Below are positions 35,490 through 63,000 of a stretch of DNA of 64,000 nt, piece after piece. This stretch comes from Cladosporium halotolerans. Lineage: Eukaryota. The notes beneath the pieces were generated by a model that did not search any database, had not been told where the DNA came from, and saw only the letters and a list, made by a program, of their open reading frames with translations. The translations under genes were made by a program, and so were the position numbers. How positions within the stretch are numbered: the stretch's first letter is position 1; every line of letters begins with the position of its first letter. The DNA is taken from assembly GCF_011745625.1 (NCBI RefSeq), contig NW_027191480.1:186001-250000 (forward strand). Reading direction: 5' to 3'.

Positions 35490-38400
35490 TCACCACCCAT
35501 TCCTTTTCCTCTTCGGCCTCTTCTTCGCCGTCGCTCCCGCACTCGCACCCTTCCCCTTCTCCACCGCAGCACCTCCATCTGCCCCCGCCGCCGTGCACCC
35601 CTGGCCAATAGAATCATCCAACCCACTAAGCCCCAGGCCCACAAGCGTATCCTCATCCATATCCGACAGCTCCTCGCTCATATCGCGCATCACTTCGCGA
35701 CCGGTGTAGCGCTCCTCGTGCACTGTCGTGCCGAGCGGGTCGAAAGGCGCGAGGTACCAGGCGACGCCGCCGTGGGCGAAGACGTCGTCGCTAGGGTTGG
35801 CGTTGGGACGCTGCGCGGAGCCGGTGGAGATGGGGGGTGAGAGGGGCTCGGTGGGTTTGGAGCTGTTTGTTTTGGTTGCGTGGGAGAGGGTTGAGGAAGC
35901 GCGGGTGGGTTTCTCTGCGGTGCCGTTTACGGTGATGGGCGCGGCGTCCTCGGCGGCGCTGGAGACGTCGCGCATTTCGATGTCGGCGGCGGCGCCGTCG
36001 GCTTTCACGTCGGGGGACGCGCCGGCGACTGCGGAGGCGTTGGAGGCGGAGCGGAGTTTCGTGGTGGCTTTGCTGGTGTCGTCGAGGTCGGCCTCGATGG
36101 ATTTGGTGACGTCCGCGGAGAAGAGGGCGAGGGATTCGATTTTGCGCATGGCTTCTTCGTGCTGCAAGCCGCGCAGCTGGGCTTCTTTCCTGGCGGCACC
36201 CTCGGTGAGCTCTTTGACTGCTTTGACGATGCGCTTGGCGAGCTTCTTGAGCTCTTTCTGGTCGTGGCTGAGGGCGTGGTGCTCTGCGGTTCCAGGTTGA
36301 ACTTCGTTGAGCTTTTGGTGGATTGTGTTGATGTCAGCGCTGGAGGCCGGGTCCAAGTTGTCGCCCTCGGCCAGTTTGGCGAGGAAGACCTGTGACAGGT
36401 CTTTGGAGAAGTCGGAGACAGAGGTATAGTAGCGCTCACGCAAGCGTTGAGCGAGCTCGTCAGTGCCCTCGCGGAAGACACCGTCTCTCTCATCGAGTCT
36501 GAAATTTAAGTCAGTCAACTGAAATGTCACACATGTTGATGTCGGAACTCACTTTTGCACGCGCAGCAAGATCGGCCACAGCAGCGGCGCAATAGGCGTG
36601 TACACGGTGTCAATCTGCTCCCTGAGCATGAGAAGCTCCTGCAGGCGAAGCATCTCGCGCTCCTTGATCTTCGCCGTGAGCTGCACCTGATACTCCATGT
36701 CCTTCTGCAGCATCTCGCCAAACTCGATGCGCCGCAGTAACCTCGGCCGTCCAGCCGCGCCCATACCAGCGAAGTTGCGCCTTGTGATTTCCATGCTAGA
36801 GAAAGTCTCAAGTTGCAACTGCAGCCGTTTGAGCAGCGCGGCGCCGCGACGTGCCTCGCGCTTCAGAGTCCAGTATCGGCATGCCTTCTCCACGAACTCC
36901 TTGCGTTTGCGGATCGTGAAGCGAGTCAAGCTGGCTTCCACCGTGTTGTAGACCACATTCGGAACGACAGGCGCCCCTGAAGGCAATCTCCAGCTCAGCT
37001 TCGGCGGCTGAGCGCGCTTGCGTTTCTGGTTCGCGACAGTGATGGTGTCATCCCCGGCGCTGCCGTCAGCCACCATGCCTCCGTCTGGCGCGGGAGGAGC
37101 CCCAAGCTCAAGCGCGGCGGTCTGGCTGTCTGCCCATTTGCGGTCCTTCATAGCGTGCCTGTACCATCGCTTCGTCTCGATGATCGCGTTGTCAGTATCG
37201 TGCGTCCGCCTCCACTCGGGCGGCACGTGCTTGTCGCAGAAAGCTTTCAAGACGCTAGCGTCAATTCCTCCCTGATGTTGGCTCTTCATCTTGAGGAACA
37301 GCTTGGCTTTCCTAGCGCATGTGACGTGGAATGCAAGATAGCAATTCTTGTTGCCGCACTGGATGCATGCACCCATCTTCTGCTGGCAAATATAACAATT
37401 CAATTTCCATCTGCTTTTCGGCACTTTGTCCACGTCGGTAATGGGCTCCATAAACGTCATGTTAGCGATCGTAACTTCTGGAATCCATATCGAGCAGAGC
37501 AAATGCGACCAGCGTAGAGTATTCGTTTGCTTGAAGGCGCCGTCCACGTTCGGACAGAAGATGCACGTGGGTGTGCCTCGTCCAATCTCCTTGCATTTCC
37601 GGCAGAACCACTGGCCTTCGGGAATGAATGGCACACCATAGCATTCCTGATGAACAGCCAGGTCGCAGCCATCGCAGAAGATGATAGCGTTGGCGTTCTC
37701 GCAGTCTCCGTCGTCACAGATCGAGCATTTGCTATCTGGCTCGTCTCCCGGCGGATTAGGGTCGCCATTAACGGCCGCTTGCGAGCTCGAACGCGGTCTA
37801 TGCAGTTGAGCGTGCCGCGGCTGCGGTTTGGGTATACGTTTCTCGAGCGCGTGGTATTCCTTTTCGATTTGCGTCATGGTGATCTCGAAGATGGCGGGCT
37901 TGATCGCATCCACTCCTTCGCTCTTACGCTGTTCGTTGATCCACTCCAGCCATTCTTCATCTTGCTCGTCCATGTCGTACTCGACTTTCCCAACGGCTGG
38001 TGCCGCAACATGTCCCTCGACGGGGCCATCGCTCTCCAGTCTCAAGCCCATCTCGGCCTCCTCTTCCGCTTGCTGGGCTTCTGAAAGTCGGATAAGGTGT
38101 TTCGCAGGAAGCTCGAATCTATCGCTCTCCTGATATCCGACGTTCGACATTGTCCGATCGACATAGTTCACCTTGATCTCTCGTGAATTCTCCTCAAATG
38201 CGAGAAAGTGGCTGAAATGGCGAAAAGAGGGTTTCGGCAAGTTCAGACGTTCTTTCGAGCTGTGCGTTGGCAGTGGCTTGATTGGTATCGGTGAGGCCAG
38301 ACCAAGACCCGTGAGCATCGAAGTGTGTTGCCTGGGCGGCCGGCCAGGTCTGCGCTTCAGAGGTGTCTCGACGTCGGCTGTAGGTTGCTGTGGCGTGTCT

Positions 38401-38999
38401 GCGGTGTGTATTTCGCCGTTTCCATTCACCGTAGGTCTGTGGTTCTCCAGCTGAGCAATCGCAGCCTTGACATCGTCCTTCTTCGTCCTACCATCCACCT
38501 CGTCTGCGGAGTAGATTATCAATCCAGCGTCCAGATCCAGGTCGGGGTGGAAGTCCTCCCAGCTCCTCTCTTCTCTCGGTTTGTAACCATCGCTCGCCTG
38601 ACTCGCTGCCGCCGCAGAAGACGAGTTGCTATACCGTGGTCTGGGCGGCACCGAGGGCGGAACATATCTTTCAGGCCTTTCTCTCCGTGGTCGTGTCTGC
38701 ATAGCCGATCTTGTTGCCGTAGGTGTCGCTGTGTCGTCGTCCTTGTCACGGAGCTCAGCACTGAATCGCCGTGATCGCACGCGTGGCGCAGTGAGTGCAC
38801 GCGAGCTTCTGGTATTCTGCTCCGGTTTGGTGTTCTCTGTATCCTCGGTGTCTTCCCACCTTCCTCCTCCTCCAAGGCCTCCAGGAACGAACTTGCGCCG
38901 CTTGGCTGGAGGTTCGGTCACGAGGTCGTGGCGCGAGCTTACACGCGTTCTGGCTGGAGTGCGCGTAGCACGACGTGGCGAAAGGTCTGTCGAGGCCAT
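35490..38999 (-). CDS. NTO1: NuA3 HAT complex PHD-finger scaffold, Nto1/BRPF-like (2 exons; intron 36499-36552)
   Basis: EPC-N motif VEYDMDEQDEEWL. PHD1 CSICDDGDCENANAIIFCDGCDLAVHQECYG, extended PHD CYICQQKMGACIQC...FHVTCA, YWTLKREARRGAALLKRL. Intron GTGAGT...ACTGAC...CAG joins the two ORFs. The start at MASTDLSPRR is inferred. Confidence 0.93.
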
Positions 39000-39628
39000 G
39001 TCGGCTGGTGAAGGCGCGATGGGCGCGCGCGAGGTGTTGCAGGTGAGTTTGTCAGCTGCGAGTGGGATGGTGAAGCTAGCCTGTCGTCGTCTGTCTCCCG
39101 GCGCAGGTGCTGAGCCGCTGGCGCATGGCTTTGCGTGCGCGATGCCGTTTGTTCCGGAGGCGGCTTGTAGCAAACTCACTCGCTGCGTCGTCGGGCGCGT
39201 GGCAGCGGTGCGCTCGACGTGGCTGTTGATGCTGGTGTTGGCGCATGGGCCGTCGACCCTGTCGGGCTGTCCAGCGCGAGGTATCGCGAAACCCGCTTTT
39301 GCGGAGACGGCCCGCGCGCCGTGGAGGAACGGTCCAAGGCTGCTGACTCGGCAGAGCGTGCCCTTGGTGTGCTCAACCCAGGCCGCCCGGCGATTGCTGC
39401 AGGTACAGAGACCTCGTGAACGAGAGGCTCCGCTAGTTGCGTCTTTGCCGCCGCGCCTTGTGCCATCGCGTGACTGAGGCATCGATGCCACAATCCGCGC
39501 TGCTTCGAGATATCACTGCGGCCTGGCATCTAGACACCTTCGTTCATCTTGTCCATATCAAGCCCTAGTCGTCCCGCCTGTCTTGTATTATTTGCAGTAT
39601 TTTTTTTCCCTTCACTCTCGTTTATGCG

Positions 39629-56055: not shown

Positions 56056-58641
56056 GTTGTTGGTGGTGATGGCTATTGCGCAACAGCCGGATGTCGATGC
56101 GCTGGTGTTGACTGATGTGCTTGCGAGGATGTCACTTCGCAAGCAGGCTGGTTGAAAGTGTCGTAGTATGGTATCGTGGCAGCGCTGGTGTGTGTCAAAG
56201 AAACAGCGAGTGCAGCCGCGCGAACTTCACTTGACCTCGACCGAAGCCGGGACTCGAAGTCCTTCGACCCAGGAGCAAGTTGCATGCCACCATCTGCAAG
56301 CATGTCTTTATCGCATCAATGCAAACACAAATGTGGCCCTTCAATCAACATCGATCGATCCATCGACATTGGCTATCGATCTCTCGATGTATAAGGAGGC
56401 CAGTAAATGTATCTCACGCCTCCGCGCCGACTTCATATCATGACTCCAGAATAGTTCAGCATGGCACGAGTCCGAGGACGCTTGAGACTAAGTATAGGAC
56501 GTATTTTTGCGCAACCGAGCTTCAGCTAATGTTATAGCTGGTAATAGCTCTCTGTAACACGAGATAAGCACTGCAAAACAGCAGTTCAAACCGGTCCGAT
56601 ATTTCTAGCACGACGAGGTCGTTGTGACGAAGTCAAGGTTTAGGCCTGGTTAGGCGCAACCTACTCTAGCAGTGGAATGGTCTATCTTCTATGTTGCCAC
56701 ATCCAGAGAGACTGTCTTCCGTAGACGCTGCATTTTCGAGATAGTGGCCAGAGCAGAGGTTTAGACTTGTCGCTGAACGGTATTTTCATCGAAGAGAACC
56801 GCCAATAGATACTAAATGGCAATAGCGCTGTGACAAGAAGGACATGCATGGGGCATGGTAATTTCGAACGTTTTTGCATGGTGACAACATGCAGGGCCGT
56901 GTATGGGGGACTGTCATCATTGAAGCCTCCAAATCAACTCGCTACTTGTCAACGGCAGAGAAGACTGGGTCAGGAATTACAGATTTTGTGAGGCCAAGGT
57001 CCCCAATGAGTGCAGCGGCAATCCCTTCGCACGAAGGTTTGTGCCGACTCTGTAGATATCATGTGCCAGTCTAAATCATGCTTCGAGTCATTGTGATAGT
57101 AGACGGGCACTCTACAAGAACAGATGTCCATGCTCGCGATGTTGCCCGTGGTAGATCTGTCCTCAAACTCCCGAGGACGACCACGCAGCTATTTGTGTGG
57201 CAATTGCTGCGCTACCGGTCCCCTCTCATTTCTTTGGGCTCAAGCAGCTCTTCGTGCCAAATCGAGCATATGTAAATCTCTTTTCCGCCACAAGGTATTG
57301 GCGGATGGCCATCAAAGTGTGGATGCTTTTGATTGTACGTCAACTCATTGAATCGACGGAGTGACCCTTTCGGTCCTCTGAAGCCAAACCTTATTGATCG
57401 TAAGAAAGACTCTGCGGGCCTCTGCAATCCTGCGTAGCATTTCAAGGTTGAGTGCAGACATACCGTTGCTCCGTGTGTGACAAGGTAGCCAAGTCCCTGG
57501 TGCAGACCAACCTCAGGAAGGTAGATTGGGGTTGGCTTCCATATAGCCAGGCTTCGAGTAGAGAAGCGTTGAGAAAAGGAGCGCCTCTTCCTAATTTTAC
57601 CTACCCAAAGCAGACTTGGAGAGTTGGCCGTAAAGCCAGCAGTGACCGGTGAAGCGATGCGCTGCCCTACGGCCAGACCTTGCGGTCCTTCCCAGGCCTG
57701 CAATACCGGCCGGCAAATGGGCAGAACCATATACACCTGCTGCGGCCCTTGATATGAGGGTTCAGGAGCCCCTCGGATGTGCTTCAGAGCATATACATTT
57801 TCGTGAGCCTTGAAACCAAAGGTGTGGCTGCAATATGGCAGGGTCTTGGCGCGCGCTCGCACCGCATATAAGTGACGGGGGCCTTTCTGTGCAACAAAGC
57901 TCGCTTCCCCCGACACCCACAGCGTTCCCACCAGCACCACCAGCACCACCAGCAGCACCACCACCACCCCAGTCACACCGCAACCATCATCAGTGCAGTC
58001 ATCAGCATCGGCGCTTCTTCATCCGTCGCGCCCTTGATGACCTCCGTCATCGAGGCGAAGCTGCAACTGCCTTGGTCGACACCCAATCAACAACGCGCGA
58101 CCACCGGCGTTGGCGTCCCTCCGCCTCGCCTCGCCCTCGCCATGCACCACGTCCATGACGAGGCCGCTGGTAGTGAGAGCTGTCGACGAGAACCGTCACG
58201 GTTCACCTGCGTGGTGTCCTGACCGGCCCGTCAAGGTACGTGACCACCCCCTGAAGGAGACTCTAACATGGGAGGATCGCGCCAGCGCCTGAAGATAGGC
58301 GCGCGCACTTGCCAGAGCATGTTCCCAGCGCCTGTCATCCGACGGTGAGACTGCAAATGGACAACATGATATGGCCATTCGCGGATGTGACGCGACCGAT
58401 TGGAGGTGGCGCTCTACGGTCCTCACCCGAAGTTGGCTGCCCAGGCACCAGTCAAGAAGAACTTCACATCGGCTGCGAATTCATCTTCGCGCGCGACCTT
58501 GTGTGATCACTTCCGTGACAGCAGCGACACACAATAACCACGCTGACGATGCCAACCGAGTCAAAATCGCGCATTGGCCTCAACTCGCGCTCACATCGTT
58601 GAGCTCAAAAGTAAGTCTAACCATTTCAAGAGTTCCCTGTG

Positions 58642-58733
58642 TGGCGAGGATGACCCAAAAGACCAGATCCTAAGCGAGCCCGCCATCGTGGTTCGCAATG
58701 GGGAATCAAATCAAGAGCTAGAACTGATTGCCA
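58642..58733 (+). ncRNA. Box C/D snoRNA/scaRNA-like RNA, copy A (most diverged)
   Basis: C-like AGGATGA 58647-58653, D CTGA 58724-58727. Flanking TGGCG/TGCCA stem and internal GCGAGCC/GGTTCGC hairpin. Confidence 0.5.
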
Positions 58734-58891
58734 AGCACCGCCGCCGATCAAGATGGGAGTTGTACCGTTGTTGCTGCGAGAGAGAGCACCTGTTGACATA
58801 ATTCAAGTCCAGACATAGCGCGATCGCTTGAGGCCACGCTCATATCGGTCAACATTCAGGGTAAGTCGAAGGCTGCCCGGCAATCCGTTCC

Positions 58892-58983
58892 TGGCAAAGA
58901 TGACACAACAATAAGAACAGATACTTCTGCAGCAAGCCTTCCAGGCTAGCGTTGAAGATAATACACACGAGCAACCTGAGCCA
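58892..58983 (+). ncRNA. Box C/D snoRNA/scaRNA-like RNA, copy B
   Basis: TGGC-A-AAGATGA...CTGA-GCCA. U2-complementary AAGAACAGATACT 58913-58925, hairpin AGCCT/AGGCT, C'-like TTGAAGA. Confidence 0.6.
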
Positions 58984-59134
58984 AAGCCCCTCAAAACTCA
59001 TAATGCGATCTCCACTGCTGAGGCGAAAGACAGCACAAGCTAACACGCTTCAAGTTTAGGTGCCGGCTACTCGTTTTCGCCCACACTCGTCTTCCTTGAC
59101 CCAAGAGTAAGTCGAAAGCTGCCTGGCGTTCCCT

Positions 59135-59232
59135 TTTTGGCAAGGATGAAGCAAAAGCAAGAACAGATACTTCTGCAGCAAGCCTTGCAGGCTAGCGTTG
59201 AAGATAATACACACGAGCAAACTGAGCCAAAA
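59135..59232 (+). ncRNA. Box C/D snoRNA/scaRNA-like RNA, copy C
   Basis: Perfect 7-bp terminal stem TTTTGGC/GCCAAAA enclosing AGGATGA (59143-59149) and CTGA (59222-59225). U2-complementary tract 59159-59171. Confidence 0.68.
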
Positions 59233-59391
59233 CCCCCTCAGAACTCATGATGCGATCTCTACTGCTGAGGCGAAAGATAGCAAGAGCTGACACGCGTCAA
59301 GCTTAGGTCTCGTGTATTCTCTTTGGCCCTCACTCAGAGTCTTCGTTCCAAGAGTAAGGTGAGTGTCGAAAGCTGCCTCAGACTTCCCTCC

Positions 59392-59478
59392 TGGCAAGGA
59401 TGAAAAAGAACAGATAGCCTAAAGCAAGCCGTCCCGGCTCGCATGACGAATCAACATTAGAGCTAAAGCTGACCGCCA
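59392..59478 (+). ncRNA. Box C/D snoRNA/scaRNA-like RNA, copy D
   Basis: TGGC-A-AGGATGA (59397-59403), AAAAGAACAGATA, D'-like CTAA, hairpin AGCCG/CGGCT, C'-like ATGACGA, D CTGA 59469-59472, then CC-GCCA. Confidence 0.62.
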
Positions 59479-59914
59479 ACCCCCCTCGGAAGTGATGATG
59501 CGATCTCCGCTGCTGAAGCGCAAGATGGCAAGAGCTGACAAGCTTGAAGTTCACAGATGACCACACAGGAGCCACGAGTCGAACACCACACCTTGAGGTG
59601 CAAGAGTTTACCAGACAAGGTGGTTTCTTCCGGGTGACAAAGCAGGATCCACTTGAGAGGCACGGCTTCCATGCACGCGCAAGCTAGCGTCGTCCAATGC
59701 GGAAACATTCTCCCTCGCTGCGAACGGAGTTTGCAAAAGAACTCTTCAAGAGCCGTTGAATCATACCAGCTTGGAGTGGCCAACTGCTTCTTGGTGTAGC
59801 GACGGCGCCTACATGGTCAGGAGTGGGAGCTCCATCGTTCTGGCCCTCCGAGGGAGCGATTGAGCAAGGTAAGAGCTCATTTCTTTGGCGCCATTTATGT
59901 CTGACCGAAGCCAC

Positions 59915-60059
59915 GCGGCAATGATGAAATTCTCACAGAGTACGTGACCTTCAGAAAGACAGAAAAATCTGATAAAATATCTGTTGTGGCCGCTGAAGGT
60001 CACATCACTCGCCGAGAAACCTGCAAGGAAGTTTTGTGCTGAACCTTGTTCTGAGCCGC
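59915..60059 (+). ncRNA. Intronic box C/D snoRNA candidate, unrelated in sequence to copies A-D
   Basis: GCGGC-A-ATGATGA (59921-59927)...CTGA (60051-60054)-GCCGC, with a perfect 11-bp internal helix 59944-59954/59993-60003. It lies in an intron-like segment: GTAAGA 59869, GCTAAC 60103, TAG 60127. Confidence 0.72.
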
Positions 60060-63000
60060 CGTAGTTGCAAGGAATCCTGACAATGTTCGAAGCAAGAAAC
60101 GCGCTAACAATCGGGCATGCTCGCTAGATCACAAGAATTGCTGCGACGAGCATCACGAAGCTCAGCCGATTACCAGCCTCCGACCAGATATTCCGATCGT
60201 CGCAAGCGGTAAGAAGGGCGTCTGCGGTCGGAAAGCACAGGTTACCCTCATGCGTACGGGTTGTCGCCTGTTAGCTGGCAGCCTTTGATACTTGCTGGAG
60301 GAAAAGTTCAGCAACACTGAGGCTTGCGGCAACGATGCTCGTTTTGACGAAAGGCGTCTATGATAACACCAGCAGGAGCAGGGACGGCTCGCCATGCGGC
60401 AGCGTTGACAGTTGCTCAGGCATGTCGTGCCCAGCACACTCTGGCACCTGGATCAGGTGAGTTGGTGTCTCGTAGCGATTCTATGGGGTTGGAGAGAGCG
60501 GGGATGTCGTTGGGCGGTTTGAAGGGACGGTTCCGGATATTCTTAGGCTTGCCACGAGCCATTCGTTTGATTGATCGGACCGTAGAGCAAATGAAAAGAG
60601 ACGCTTTTGAGACCCAATTCGACTTCGTCATCTTGATCCTCTCACAGATTTGTCACAGTAGCGTTGCTGACGGGCTGGATTGCACAGAAAACTATGCGCA
60701 GCAGCGTAGTGGCAGTGACGTTCGGGCCAGGCATTTTCAGGACCTGAATTCAGGATCGGCCTCTCCTAGTGATATCGGGATTGGATGTCGGCTCTTGCTG
60801 GCAGAAAAGCTTAACGCAAACGGACCCGCGGCTGCAATCATCGACAAGAATACCATTCGACAAGAATATCATTGGCCCGGATTAATGTGTTCCGACAAAG
60901 CAGATCATTGTCAATAATTGGAGGCCTTCTGATAACTTGCCTGATCCGGATCCAGCACCCGATACGTCGTTACCAGTTCAGAATCAGAACATGGCGCGGT
61001 CCTTGAAGTTCTTCACCAGTACATAACCCCAGGAGCAGCCGAAGATGTTTCGACGACACTCTTTGCAGCTATCGGGATCATATGGAGGATTGCATCTCCT
61101 AATTCAACTACTGGTGCCGGCAAGGCTTGAGCTAAATCCGGGCTGGCGATCCACATTCCGATGTCGCGTATGAACATACACGCCGGAAGTCTGTCGCCAA
61201 TATAAGCACATCGATTCGGGCTGTACATGGAAAGTTGGGATAATCAGAGCGAATACGGCAGCCTTGCCGCATTATTGTTCTCGAAAGAATGCCTATGCGC
61301 ACGTTCCGGCTTACGAGAAACTGCGCAAGATGCCCACTGCCTTTTCGGCACAGGAGTATTCCATTCGGACCAGCTACCACGATCGTGTGTGTGGCAAGTA
61401 CACGACCGAGCAAGTCTGGAAGCAGTCTGCGTATGGCTCGCAGATAAGTAGTGACTTGACGGCGCTGAGCTGCAGAGCAGTATGCGAATGAGCCTTCTCT
61501 TCGATGCTGTCTCACCCCACAGACTCTGTACAATCGGCGATGCTTTCGCCTCTGGCCATTCTACCGAGTGTCATGTCCACAACAGGCGCTTGATTCCCAA
61601 TGCAACCCTTCTCGCATGCGTCGGACGGGTCGTCGTGGTCTCGAAGAGGGCCGGTCCTTGGTGTGTGGAAAGTCGACCGCGTCGCAATTGATGAGCTGCA
61701 CGCGCCGAATATGTTCTATCGCCTCCGTGGAACAAATACGGGGCCAGAGTCTCGTCGAGGAAAACGGCTGCTGCCGGAGAAAGGATCCTCCAAGGTCTCA
61801 CGAGGTCATGCAGCGAGCCGGACTCGTTGCAAAGGAGACCCACCACAGCTGAACGCCATTGCCCCACGAGAGAAGCCGAATTCCGGCGGTGTCCAAAGTC
61901 TATCACGACTTCAGCTCGTCCATAATTATTTGTCTGCCATCGGCGCACTTCAGCACCCACGCGTGACATGACCTTTGCAGATCTTCTGTCGGCTGCTGAA
62001 CTGACTGGTCCGATGTTGCTTTGGTCATCCCTCAATGAACAGCGCTGAAGTCTGTGCTTGCTCCTACAGCCCGCAGAAGCTTGTCTCTCACTGGACGCTG
62101 ATTGTGCCTTGCCGGCCTTTCAACACCCAAGAATGGATTTTGCAACATGTGAATCCCAAGTCGTGGCTTTCCTGGGGTTTCAAATGGTTTTGTGATCAAC
62201 CGGCTGCCGTCTGAAAGCGGCTGCTATCCGTCCAGCTACGCTCTGCAAGACACGCGAAACTGCGCGTCCGAATTTCAAATGCCTTGTCATCCACGCAGGT
62301 CGTCTACAGAGCCTGTCGCGCCAGCCCTTCATCGAGCGATGTTGATAGTGGAGTACCATCTCTCGAGCACCGACTGTATCCGCCTCTTGCAAGATACCAA
62401 ACTGCATACCATCACCAGGCTTCTTGCATGAGCTGTGCTCGCCCTACCTGTGGCGTAAACCGGGGTCGAACTCCTTGTCACAAACAAAAGAGCGCTTCGA
62501 TCGCGGATGTCAGGTCGTTGCGCTACGTGCAGAGATTGCCCAATCCGATACTCTTGTTAACGGCGAGGTCTTTGTGCTTCGGGTCACGCAGCAATTGGAG
62601 AAATACACAATGTCGCGTGGCAAACTGACATTGAGCGAGGGATGCGTCTCTCGATGCCGTCCTCGTGCTGCAAGATCACCAGTCTGGATCTCGCTGTCAC
62701 CAGCAGATCATGAGATATGCCTTGAGCATGTAAAGAACCTCGGCCGGCGATCTTCGGTGGCATGCTGCCGATGGCGAATGGCAATGAGTGCAACAAGCGT
62801 CCAGGAGGTGCCACGGTCAAGGAGTCGAAGGTCATCGGCGTCGTCGCAATGCAATGTCGTGTCTGCGATCGCATTCCATCCATGGGTCCTCCTTGGCGAC
62901 GTTCCGGGCACTCCAGCAGGGGAGCGTGTTTCACGTCAGGCGTAGTGTTGCGTCCTGAAGAGGGTGCTTTGTATGGCAAAACAAGAGCGTGCCAAGCCTC

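Follow-up and report, generated by a model that had tools for sequence, protein, structure and literature searches.

Four tandem intronic box C/D snoRNA paralogues with antisense elements to the U2 branch-point recognition region: candidate U2 guides in Cladosporium halotolerans

Results

An apparent snoRNA host gene built of four tandem units

The locus described here lies within a window of 64 kb (the whole stretch of Cladosporium halotolerans DNA that was analysed) and consists of four tandem units, each made up of a short exon (~47 nt) and one intron with one snoRNA. The units are recognized by TRF with a period of 247, and form a repeat family (D4) of n = 4 copies at spacings of 250, 246 and 254. 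A 313-nt exon and a further intron with a fifth snoRNA follow. The features of the host gene and of this last intron are:

58611..59868, plus strand: repeated part of the snoRNA host gene, four units of ~247 bp and then a 313-nt exon
58611, 58861, 59107 and 59354, plus strand: 5' splice sites GTAAG of units A-D, the introns starting GTAAGT
58793 (TTGAC, unit A), 59040 (CTAAC, unit B), 59287 (CTGAC, unit C) and 59535 (CTGAC, unit D), plus strand: branch-like sites
58980-59056, 59227-59303 and 59475-59551, plus strand: conserved intronic element between snoRNA and branch point (repeat family D1)
59916..60059, plus strand: fifth box C/D snoRNA, unrelated to the other four and longer, in the next intron (5' splice site at 59869)
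59921-59927 and 60051-60054, plus strand: C box ATGATGA and D box CTGA of the fifth snoRNA, which has a terminal stem GCGGC/GCCGC
59938-59948 / 59993-60003, plus strand: internal perfect 11-bp hairpin of the fifth snoRNA

Placement within the introns is nearly constant, which fits intron-encoded snoRNAs. The distance from the 5' splice site to the snoRNA is 31, 31, 31 and 38 nt in units A-D, and that from the snoRNA 3' end to the branch-like site is 63, 60, 61 and 60 nt, with an AG downstream. No long reading frame appears in the open reading frame lists for the repeated part of the host gene (58611..59868). Elsewhere in the window, a frame on the minus strand (36549-39512) encodes a protein that resembles ascomycete NTO1/PHD proteins. 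Given this protein and the fungal character of the splice signals, we read the locus as an ascomycete non-coding snoRNA host gene. It apparently carries one C/D snoRNA per intron, a single ancestor having been tandemly duplicated to four.

Intron-encoded snoRNAs are the commonest arrangement among the C/D snoRNAs of N. crassa (PMC2780460, excerpt). As in UHG/GAS5-type genes and the N. crassa clusters, each intron has one snoRNA, the exons are short and lack reading frames, and the snoRNAs keep a set distance from the branch point; unlike them, the locus has four introns that hold a recent tandem array of one snoRNA's paralogues. Sequence from four runs was compared with the locus, in all cases as contigs, and no splice joints were seen among them. 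The only RNA-seq contig (run X19) spans 59840-60074, which holds the fifth snoRNA and not copies A-D; stretches beyond this contig carry no weight either way.

Two further components of the introns merit description. The conserved intronic element (~77 nt; three copies with 78-100% identity) ends at the branch site in units B-D and holds an ATGATGC-like motif and a CTGA within a possible hairpin. A diverged version of it seems to make the 5' part of the fifth snoRNA, and the element itself may act in processing or may be what is left of a second small RNA in each unit. In the hairpin loop of the fifth snoRNA, 8 nt (59978-59985) resemble U2 in the sense orientation and are complementary to the antisense element core of copies B-D described below. 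Upstream of the host gene by ~650 bp lies a CCA / CCACCAGCA microsatellite (57928-57968, plus strand; 4.6 copies of 9 nt).

Box C/D anatomy of the four paralogues

The four repeated snoRNAs, designated copies A-D after their units, have the following parts:

58642-58733, plus strand: snoRNA copy A, 92 nt, box C/D anatomy
58647-58653, 58670-58673, 58699-58704 and 58724-58727, plus strand: boxes of copy A, namely C (AGGATGA), D'-like (CTAA), C'-like (TGGGGA) and D (CTGA)
58892-58983, plus strand: snoRNA copy B, 92 nt, box C/D anatomy
58897-58903, 58927-58930, 58953-58958 and 58976-58979, plus strand: boxes of copy B, namely C (AAGATGA), D'-like (CTGC), C'-like (TGAAGA) and D
58935-58947, plus strand: internal hairpin of copy B
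59138-59229, plus strand: snoRNA copy C, 92 nt, box C/D anatomy
59143-59149, 59173-59176, 59199-59204 and 59222-59225, plus strand: boxes of copy C, namely C (AGGATGA), D'-like (CTGC), C'-like (TGAAGA) and D
59392-59478, plus strand: snoRNA copy D, 87 nt, box C/D anatomy
59397-59403, 59419-59422, 59444-59449 and 59469-59472, plus strand: boxes of copy D, namely C (AGGATGA), D'-like (CTAA), C'-like (TGACGA) and D
59418-59421, plus strand: weaker alternative D' box of copy D (CCTA, 2/4 match)

The lengths of 87-92 nt fit the 70-120 nt range of C/D snoRNAs. Near the 5' end stands a C box of the RUGAUGA type, which reads AGGAUGA in A, C and D and AAGAUGA in B; its core GAUGA is invariant in all four copies, and at position 2 the consensus U is replaced by A or G. 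Near the 3' end, the D box is CUGA in all four. The ends are joined by a terminal stem of 4 bp, UGGC/GCCA (TGGC/GCCA in the DNA), which is invariant and paired in every copy. The internal boxes are less regular. The D'-like boxes, of which A and D share CUAA and B and C share CUGC, are degenerate and match CUGA at three of four positions in every copy, and the C'-like boxes are weak (UGAAGA in B and C, UGACGA in D, UGGGGA in A). Between D' and C' a hairpin is kept, with pairing preserved through one two-sided change. In the consensus fold of the four copies, the segment upstream of the D'-like box that constitutes the antisense element is unpaired. A covariance model built from the four copies (R1) scores A at 94.1, B at 96.3, C at 96.5 and D at 91 bits, all four being its training sequences, and applied to the 64-kb window it finds no copy beyond them. 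By these features of their sequence, copies A-D are very probably genuine intron-encoded box C/D snoRNAs.

The first-pass annotation had called the RNAs paralogous scaRNA-like guides. Their status as paralogous C/D RNAs is borne out by the anatomy above and the conservation described below. The scaRNA-like part of the description is not supported, since direct reading finds no UG-rich run inside any of the four RNAs, and such a run marks human C/D scaRNAs (PMC6412121, excerpt). The sole UG-rich segment is a 7-nt TGTGTGG just 5' of copy A, outside the RNA.

Complementarity to U2

Upstream of each D'-like box is an element complementary to the part of U2 snRNA that recognizes the branch point:

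58657-58668, plus strand: antisense element of copy A (read directly and checked by script)
58913-58925, plus strand: antisense element of copy B (58911-58925 if U2 has A after CUU; checked by script)
59159-59171, plus strand: antisense element of copy C (checked by script)
59404-59416, plus strand: antisense element of copy D, directly 3' of the C box (checked by script)

These four motifs had been reported in the first-pass annotation as 13-nt perfect complements of U2 in B, C and D and a complement with one mismatch in A. Direct reading and the script place all four on the plus strand at the positions listed, and recomputation gives the same matches. The target used was the 22-nt U2 motif as written in that annotation, in both its U and A variants. 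The motif is genuine: it is included in yeast U2 nt 31-55 (PMC4712673, excerpt), and a literature listing has the 15-mer or its complement in 31 papers. The N. crassa U2 fragment printed with the duplex of the snoRNA CD29 extends into the same stretch (PMC2780460, excerpt). U2 of Cladosporium halotolerans is presumed here to have the motif, as yeast U2 has it and this part of the molecule is generally conserved.

With the two variants of the motif, uninterrupted Watson-Crick pairing extends over at most 13 or 15 nt in B, 13 nt in C and 13 or 11 nt in D, and copy A forms a 12-nt pairing with one internal mismatch at 58663. For the duplexes with U2, the computed energies come to -9.7 kcal/mol in A, -17.7 in B, -17.8 in C and -15.1 in D, compared with means of -4.9 to -7.1 kcal/mol for shuffled guides. 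This was the shuffled-control check that had been proposed with the first-pass annotation, and the duplexes beat the shuffles: per 2000 trials, the observed energy was reached 52 times for A, once for B, three times for C and once for D. On both strands of the 64-kb window, U2 complements of at least 11 nt occur in B, C and D only, and 13-nt words complementary to U2 give five word matches at three places against 0.029 expected. One 10-nt U2 complement, without snoRNA context, lies at 57116. The complementarity of the elements to U2 is far beyond chance. Because the three places are paralogues, the matches in B, C and D represent one origin kept three or four times and not independent events.

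The RNAs carry, then, an antisense element of at least 10 nt that ends 1-4 nt before D' and is complementary to a stable RNA, with the U2 sequence taken from the first-pass annotation and yeast. These observations support assigning the U2 elements to the D' side, as the 5' antisense elements of paralogous box C/D RNAs that look real. A match of this kind might be incidental if the element served another target, an rRNA, tRNA or mRNA sharing the sequence. Elements with several targets do exist, as exemplified by N. crassa CD11, which is directed to U6, 18S and 26S (PMC2780460, excerpt). A perfect match of 13-15 nt to a highly conserved snRNA stretch is unlikely by chance, however, and none of the N. 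crassa rRNA guide-target duplexes printed in Additional file 4 of that paper uses this sequence. We regard an incidental U2 match of this sort as distinctly unlikely.

Conservation among the paralogues and in relatives

Each RNA has a second potential guide on the D side, and these guides fall into two types:

58705-58723 and 59450-59468, plus strand: D-side guides of the A/D type, without counterpart among the published N. crassa guides
58959-58975 and 59205-59221, plus strand: D-side guides of the B/C type, without counterpart among the published N. crassa guides

The comparison with N. crassa was made by eye against the duplex list and sequences in the additional files of PMC2780460.

In each of the six pairwise comparisons of the paralogues, 9-10 of the 10 nt in the core of the antisense element agree, a level equal to that of the boxes (10-12 of 12). 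The spacer before the element keeps only 0-4 of its 5-9 positions, and D-side guides of the A/D type agree with those of the B/C type at only 7-8 of 17. The core is kept while the spacer and D-side guide have diverged, so the copies have existed long enough for similarity to fade where nothing requires it. Selection on every copy for pairing with U2 would be expected to give this pattern, and we take the element to be under such selection. The pattern is the opposite of what would be predicted if the D-side guides were the working parts, directed at rRNA, and the U2 element were a decaying relic or a chance feature inherited by duplication. A relic would be in keeping with the descent of the four copies from one ancestor, by which the match arose once, and with the mismatch already present in copy A. 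The mismatched position, though, is a G in the relatives represented by runs X5 and X10, where it would form a G-U wobble pair with U2. In light of these data we consider a relic or chance feature very improbable.

Relatives were compared as contigs, using the 40 of 355 difference rows listed, which we take as complete for run X5 up to 58938. The X5 relative (~96% identical) is represented by one contig over the whole stretch, with 99 differences in 2601 nt. Up to 58938, the listed X5 differences number 5 per 139 nt for the snoRNAs and 20 per 189 nt for the intron and exon sequence beside them (Fisher p = 0.02), and there is no change in element B among the differences listed for this run. The C box of copy B, AAGATGA here, is AGGATGA in the contigs from relatives. 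Run X16 contains a 43-nt contig identical to 58913-58955 at ~2x the neighbouring depth, as expected if copies B and C share this stretch there too. In a contig from the more distant X10 relative (~87% identical), one T (58925) is missing between element B and the D' box. The loss shifts the register of copy B by one, and the register therefore does not look constrained. In the same X10 contig, 62 other letters separate 58960 from 59275, and about one repeat unit is therefore missing; repeat copy number differs among close relatives.

Searches further afield covered published snoRNAs, Rfam and metagenomic and viral contigs, and brought no orthologue of copies A-D to light. The element core is present in none of the 55 published N. 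crassa C/D snoRNAs (PMC2780460). The comparison with Rfam that had been suggested along with the first-pass annotation gave no family at its gathering threshold in the window. In E-value mode, the weak matches to HIV_GSL3 and PK-repBA are clearly spurious, and that to ceN53 is below threshold. The nematode C/D snoRNA ceN114 also scores below its gathering threshold (19.5 bits, E = 2.7, compared with 44 bits); its match lies in copy D (59392-59432, plus strand) and is confined to the 5' stem, a C box of the unusual form GGAUGA and the element's first 8 nt. A metagenome scan with a degenerate pattern that combined the C-box core, the element and a D'-like box returned 26 loci, mostly in low-GC DNA, that look like chance matches. 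None of the 26 reached E < 0.01 with R1, the best scoring 18.5 bits (E 0.11). A 17-nt U2 motif matched viral contigs at three loci, none of which is U2 by Rfam and one of which looks like coding DNA.

Predicted target nucleotides

The distance from the end of the element core to the D'-like box is 1 nt in A, 4 nt in B and C, and 3 nt in D, which bears out the earlier remark that this spacing varies among copies. Registers were derived by hand from the alignments and the yeast U2 numbering (PMC4712673, excerpt), using the best D' boxes and the fifth-nucleotide rule. The predicted targets are A38 for B and C, U39 for D and U41 for A in human/S. pombe numbering, equivalent to A39, U40 and U42 in yeast; the first-pass annotation had arrived at the same three nucleotides.

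Fission yeast and animal U2 carry Cm40, and positions 39 and 41 of human and S. pombe U2 are pseudouridines, not ribose-methylated (PMC5733568, excerpt). Cm40, the nucleotide addressed by guides of the MeU2-C41/MBII-19 type, faces the fifth position in none of the four copies with the best D' box. C40 is reached only if copy D uses its weaker CCUA (2/4 match), or via the sixth or seventh position, and no single definition of the D' box brings the four copies onto one nucleotide. The three disagreeing registers, none of them Cm40, count against a methylation-guide function.

A set of RNAs in which pairing is kept and register is not, as seen in the three registers of the four copies and the 1-nt indel of a relative, might instead pair with U2 without methylating it. 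They could act as chaperones, as competitors that mask the branch site in U2 maturation, or through an accessory pairing that helps another guide; in the masking variant they could set the order or level of neighbouring pseudouridylation. The degenerate D' boxes point in the same direction. D' boxes that match at three of four positions are nonetheless common in working eukaryotic guides, and a methylation guide needs precisely such an arrangement, a 13-nt duplex beside a D'-like box. We know of no C/D RNA that chaperones U2, and none was met in the literature consulted. Published work also speaks for the idea: non-functional antisense elements may compete with functional guides (Deryusheva and Gall, PMC8522698, excerpt), and modifying one site of this U2 region inhibits its neighbours (PMC5733568, excerpt). 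Weighing these points, we judge pairing without methylation to be unlikely.

Discussion

The explanation we prefer, with moderate confidence, is that copies A-D are guides for 2'-O-methylation of U2 within the region that recognizes the branch point. Splicing and debranching, followed by exonucleolytic trimming, would convert each intron to an RNA of 87-92 nt, which would be protected by the C/D core proteins Snu13, Nop56 and Nop58 and the methyltransferase Nop1/fibrillarin, by analogy with other C/D snoRNAs. The antisense element, lying between the C and D'-like boxes, would pair with U2 nt 35-47 or 35-49 (human/S. pombe numbering) and thereby set a U2 ribose in the fibrillarin site for 2'-O-methylation. 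The second guides on the D side, of the A/D and B/C types, probably serve other targets, in the manner of the N. crassa double guide CD29. What is shown here is the anatomy of these RNAs, their complementarity and their conservation among paralogues; their expression, RNP assembly, in vivo pairing and methylation activity, and the exact site modified, are inferred.

Guided methylation of U2 by C/D snoRNAs has precedent in filamentous fungi. CD29 of N. crassa is a double guide that directs U2-Am31, as verified by primer extension (PMC2780460, excerpt), and Afu-191 of A. fumigatus is assigned to U2 Am32; filamentous ascomycetes thus use ordinary snoRNAs on U2. Both are fungal C/D snoRNAs that guide methylation on U2, as proposed for copies A-D. 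In contrast to our copies, CD29, Afu-191 and human SCARNA9 (mgU2-19/30) use an element that pairs with AUCAAGUGUAGU, with A30, A31 or A32 as target. On U2, the element of A-D lies ~8 nt further 3', with an overlap of only AGU(A), and A-D do not show the AUCAAGUGUAGU complement with A30/31 at the fifth position that marks this family. U2 methylation is not universal in ascomycetes, as the snRNAs of S. cerevisiae are without any 2'-O-methyl groups (PMC5733568, excerpt).

If they are such guides, copies A-D would be a counterpart, in a fungus, of Drosophila scaRNA:MeU2-C41, mouse MBII-19 or human scaRNA28. The Drosophila RNA (also mgU2-41) is a verified C/D guide that methylates U2 C41, equivalent to C40 of human and S. 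pombe (PMC5733568, excerpt). Judged by description and not by sequence, it is alike in being a C/D guide with an antisense element over the same branch-point recognition part of U2. It differs in being an animal Cajal-body RNA and in having C41 at the target position, where none of the four copies has it with the best D' boxes. Its authors, writing in 2018 (PMC5733568), knew of no orthologue in any other species. In mammals, a 2021 review lists MBII-19 for human U2 Cm40 and scaRNA28 for Um47 (PMC7960923, excerpt), the latter assignment being backed by knock-down (PMC6412121, excerpt). Both are C/D guides assigned to riboses inside or next to the U2 stretch paired here; they have other target nucleotides, and scaRNA28 has a UG-rich Cajal-body motif. 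No similarity between either and copies A-D is detectable through Rfam.

A bolder variant takes the differing registers at face value. The array would then be a set of staggered guides methylating the adjacent nucleotides A38, U39 and U41, or else a set of methylation-independent regulators of U2 maturation. We hold this to be doubtful, and methylation of several adjacent branch-region riboses is a pattern not described for any U2. Were either form of it true, new modification sites on snRNAs could evolve by tandem duplication combined with 1-nt indels. The differing registers of the paralogues would reveal if elements of this kind put up with drift or give rise to new sites.

Copies A-D are a candidate fungal C/D snoRNA family aimed at the U2 branch-site stretch, a site without a known fungal guide. 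Our search of the accessible literature found no fungal guide for this part of U2, and the supplements of a fungal snoRNAome study (PMC5824354) may list one. The order of U2 modifications matters because methylating C41 in yeast suppresses a neighbouring pseudouridine (PMC5733568, excerpt). S. cerevisiae U2 has the same target sequence and is free of ribose methylation.

A related observation concerns the H/ACA class. The N. crassa H/ACA snoRNA ACA13 (EU780992; Additional file 2 of PMC2780460, excerpt) includes 11 nt that are complementary to the U2 stretch discussed above. That paper predicted no snRNA pseudouridylation guides, and from this complementarity ACA13 may be an overlooked U2 pseudouridine guide.
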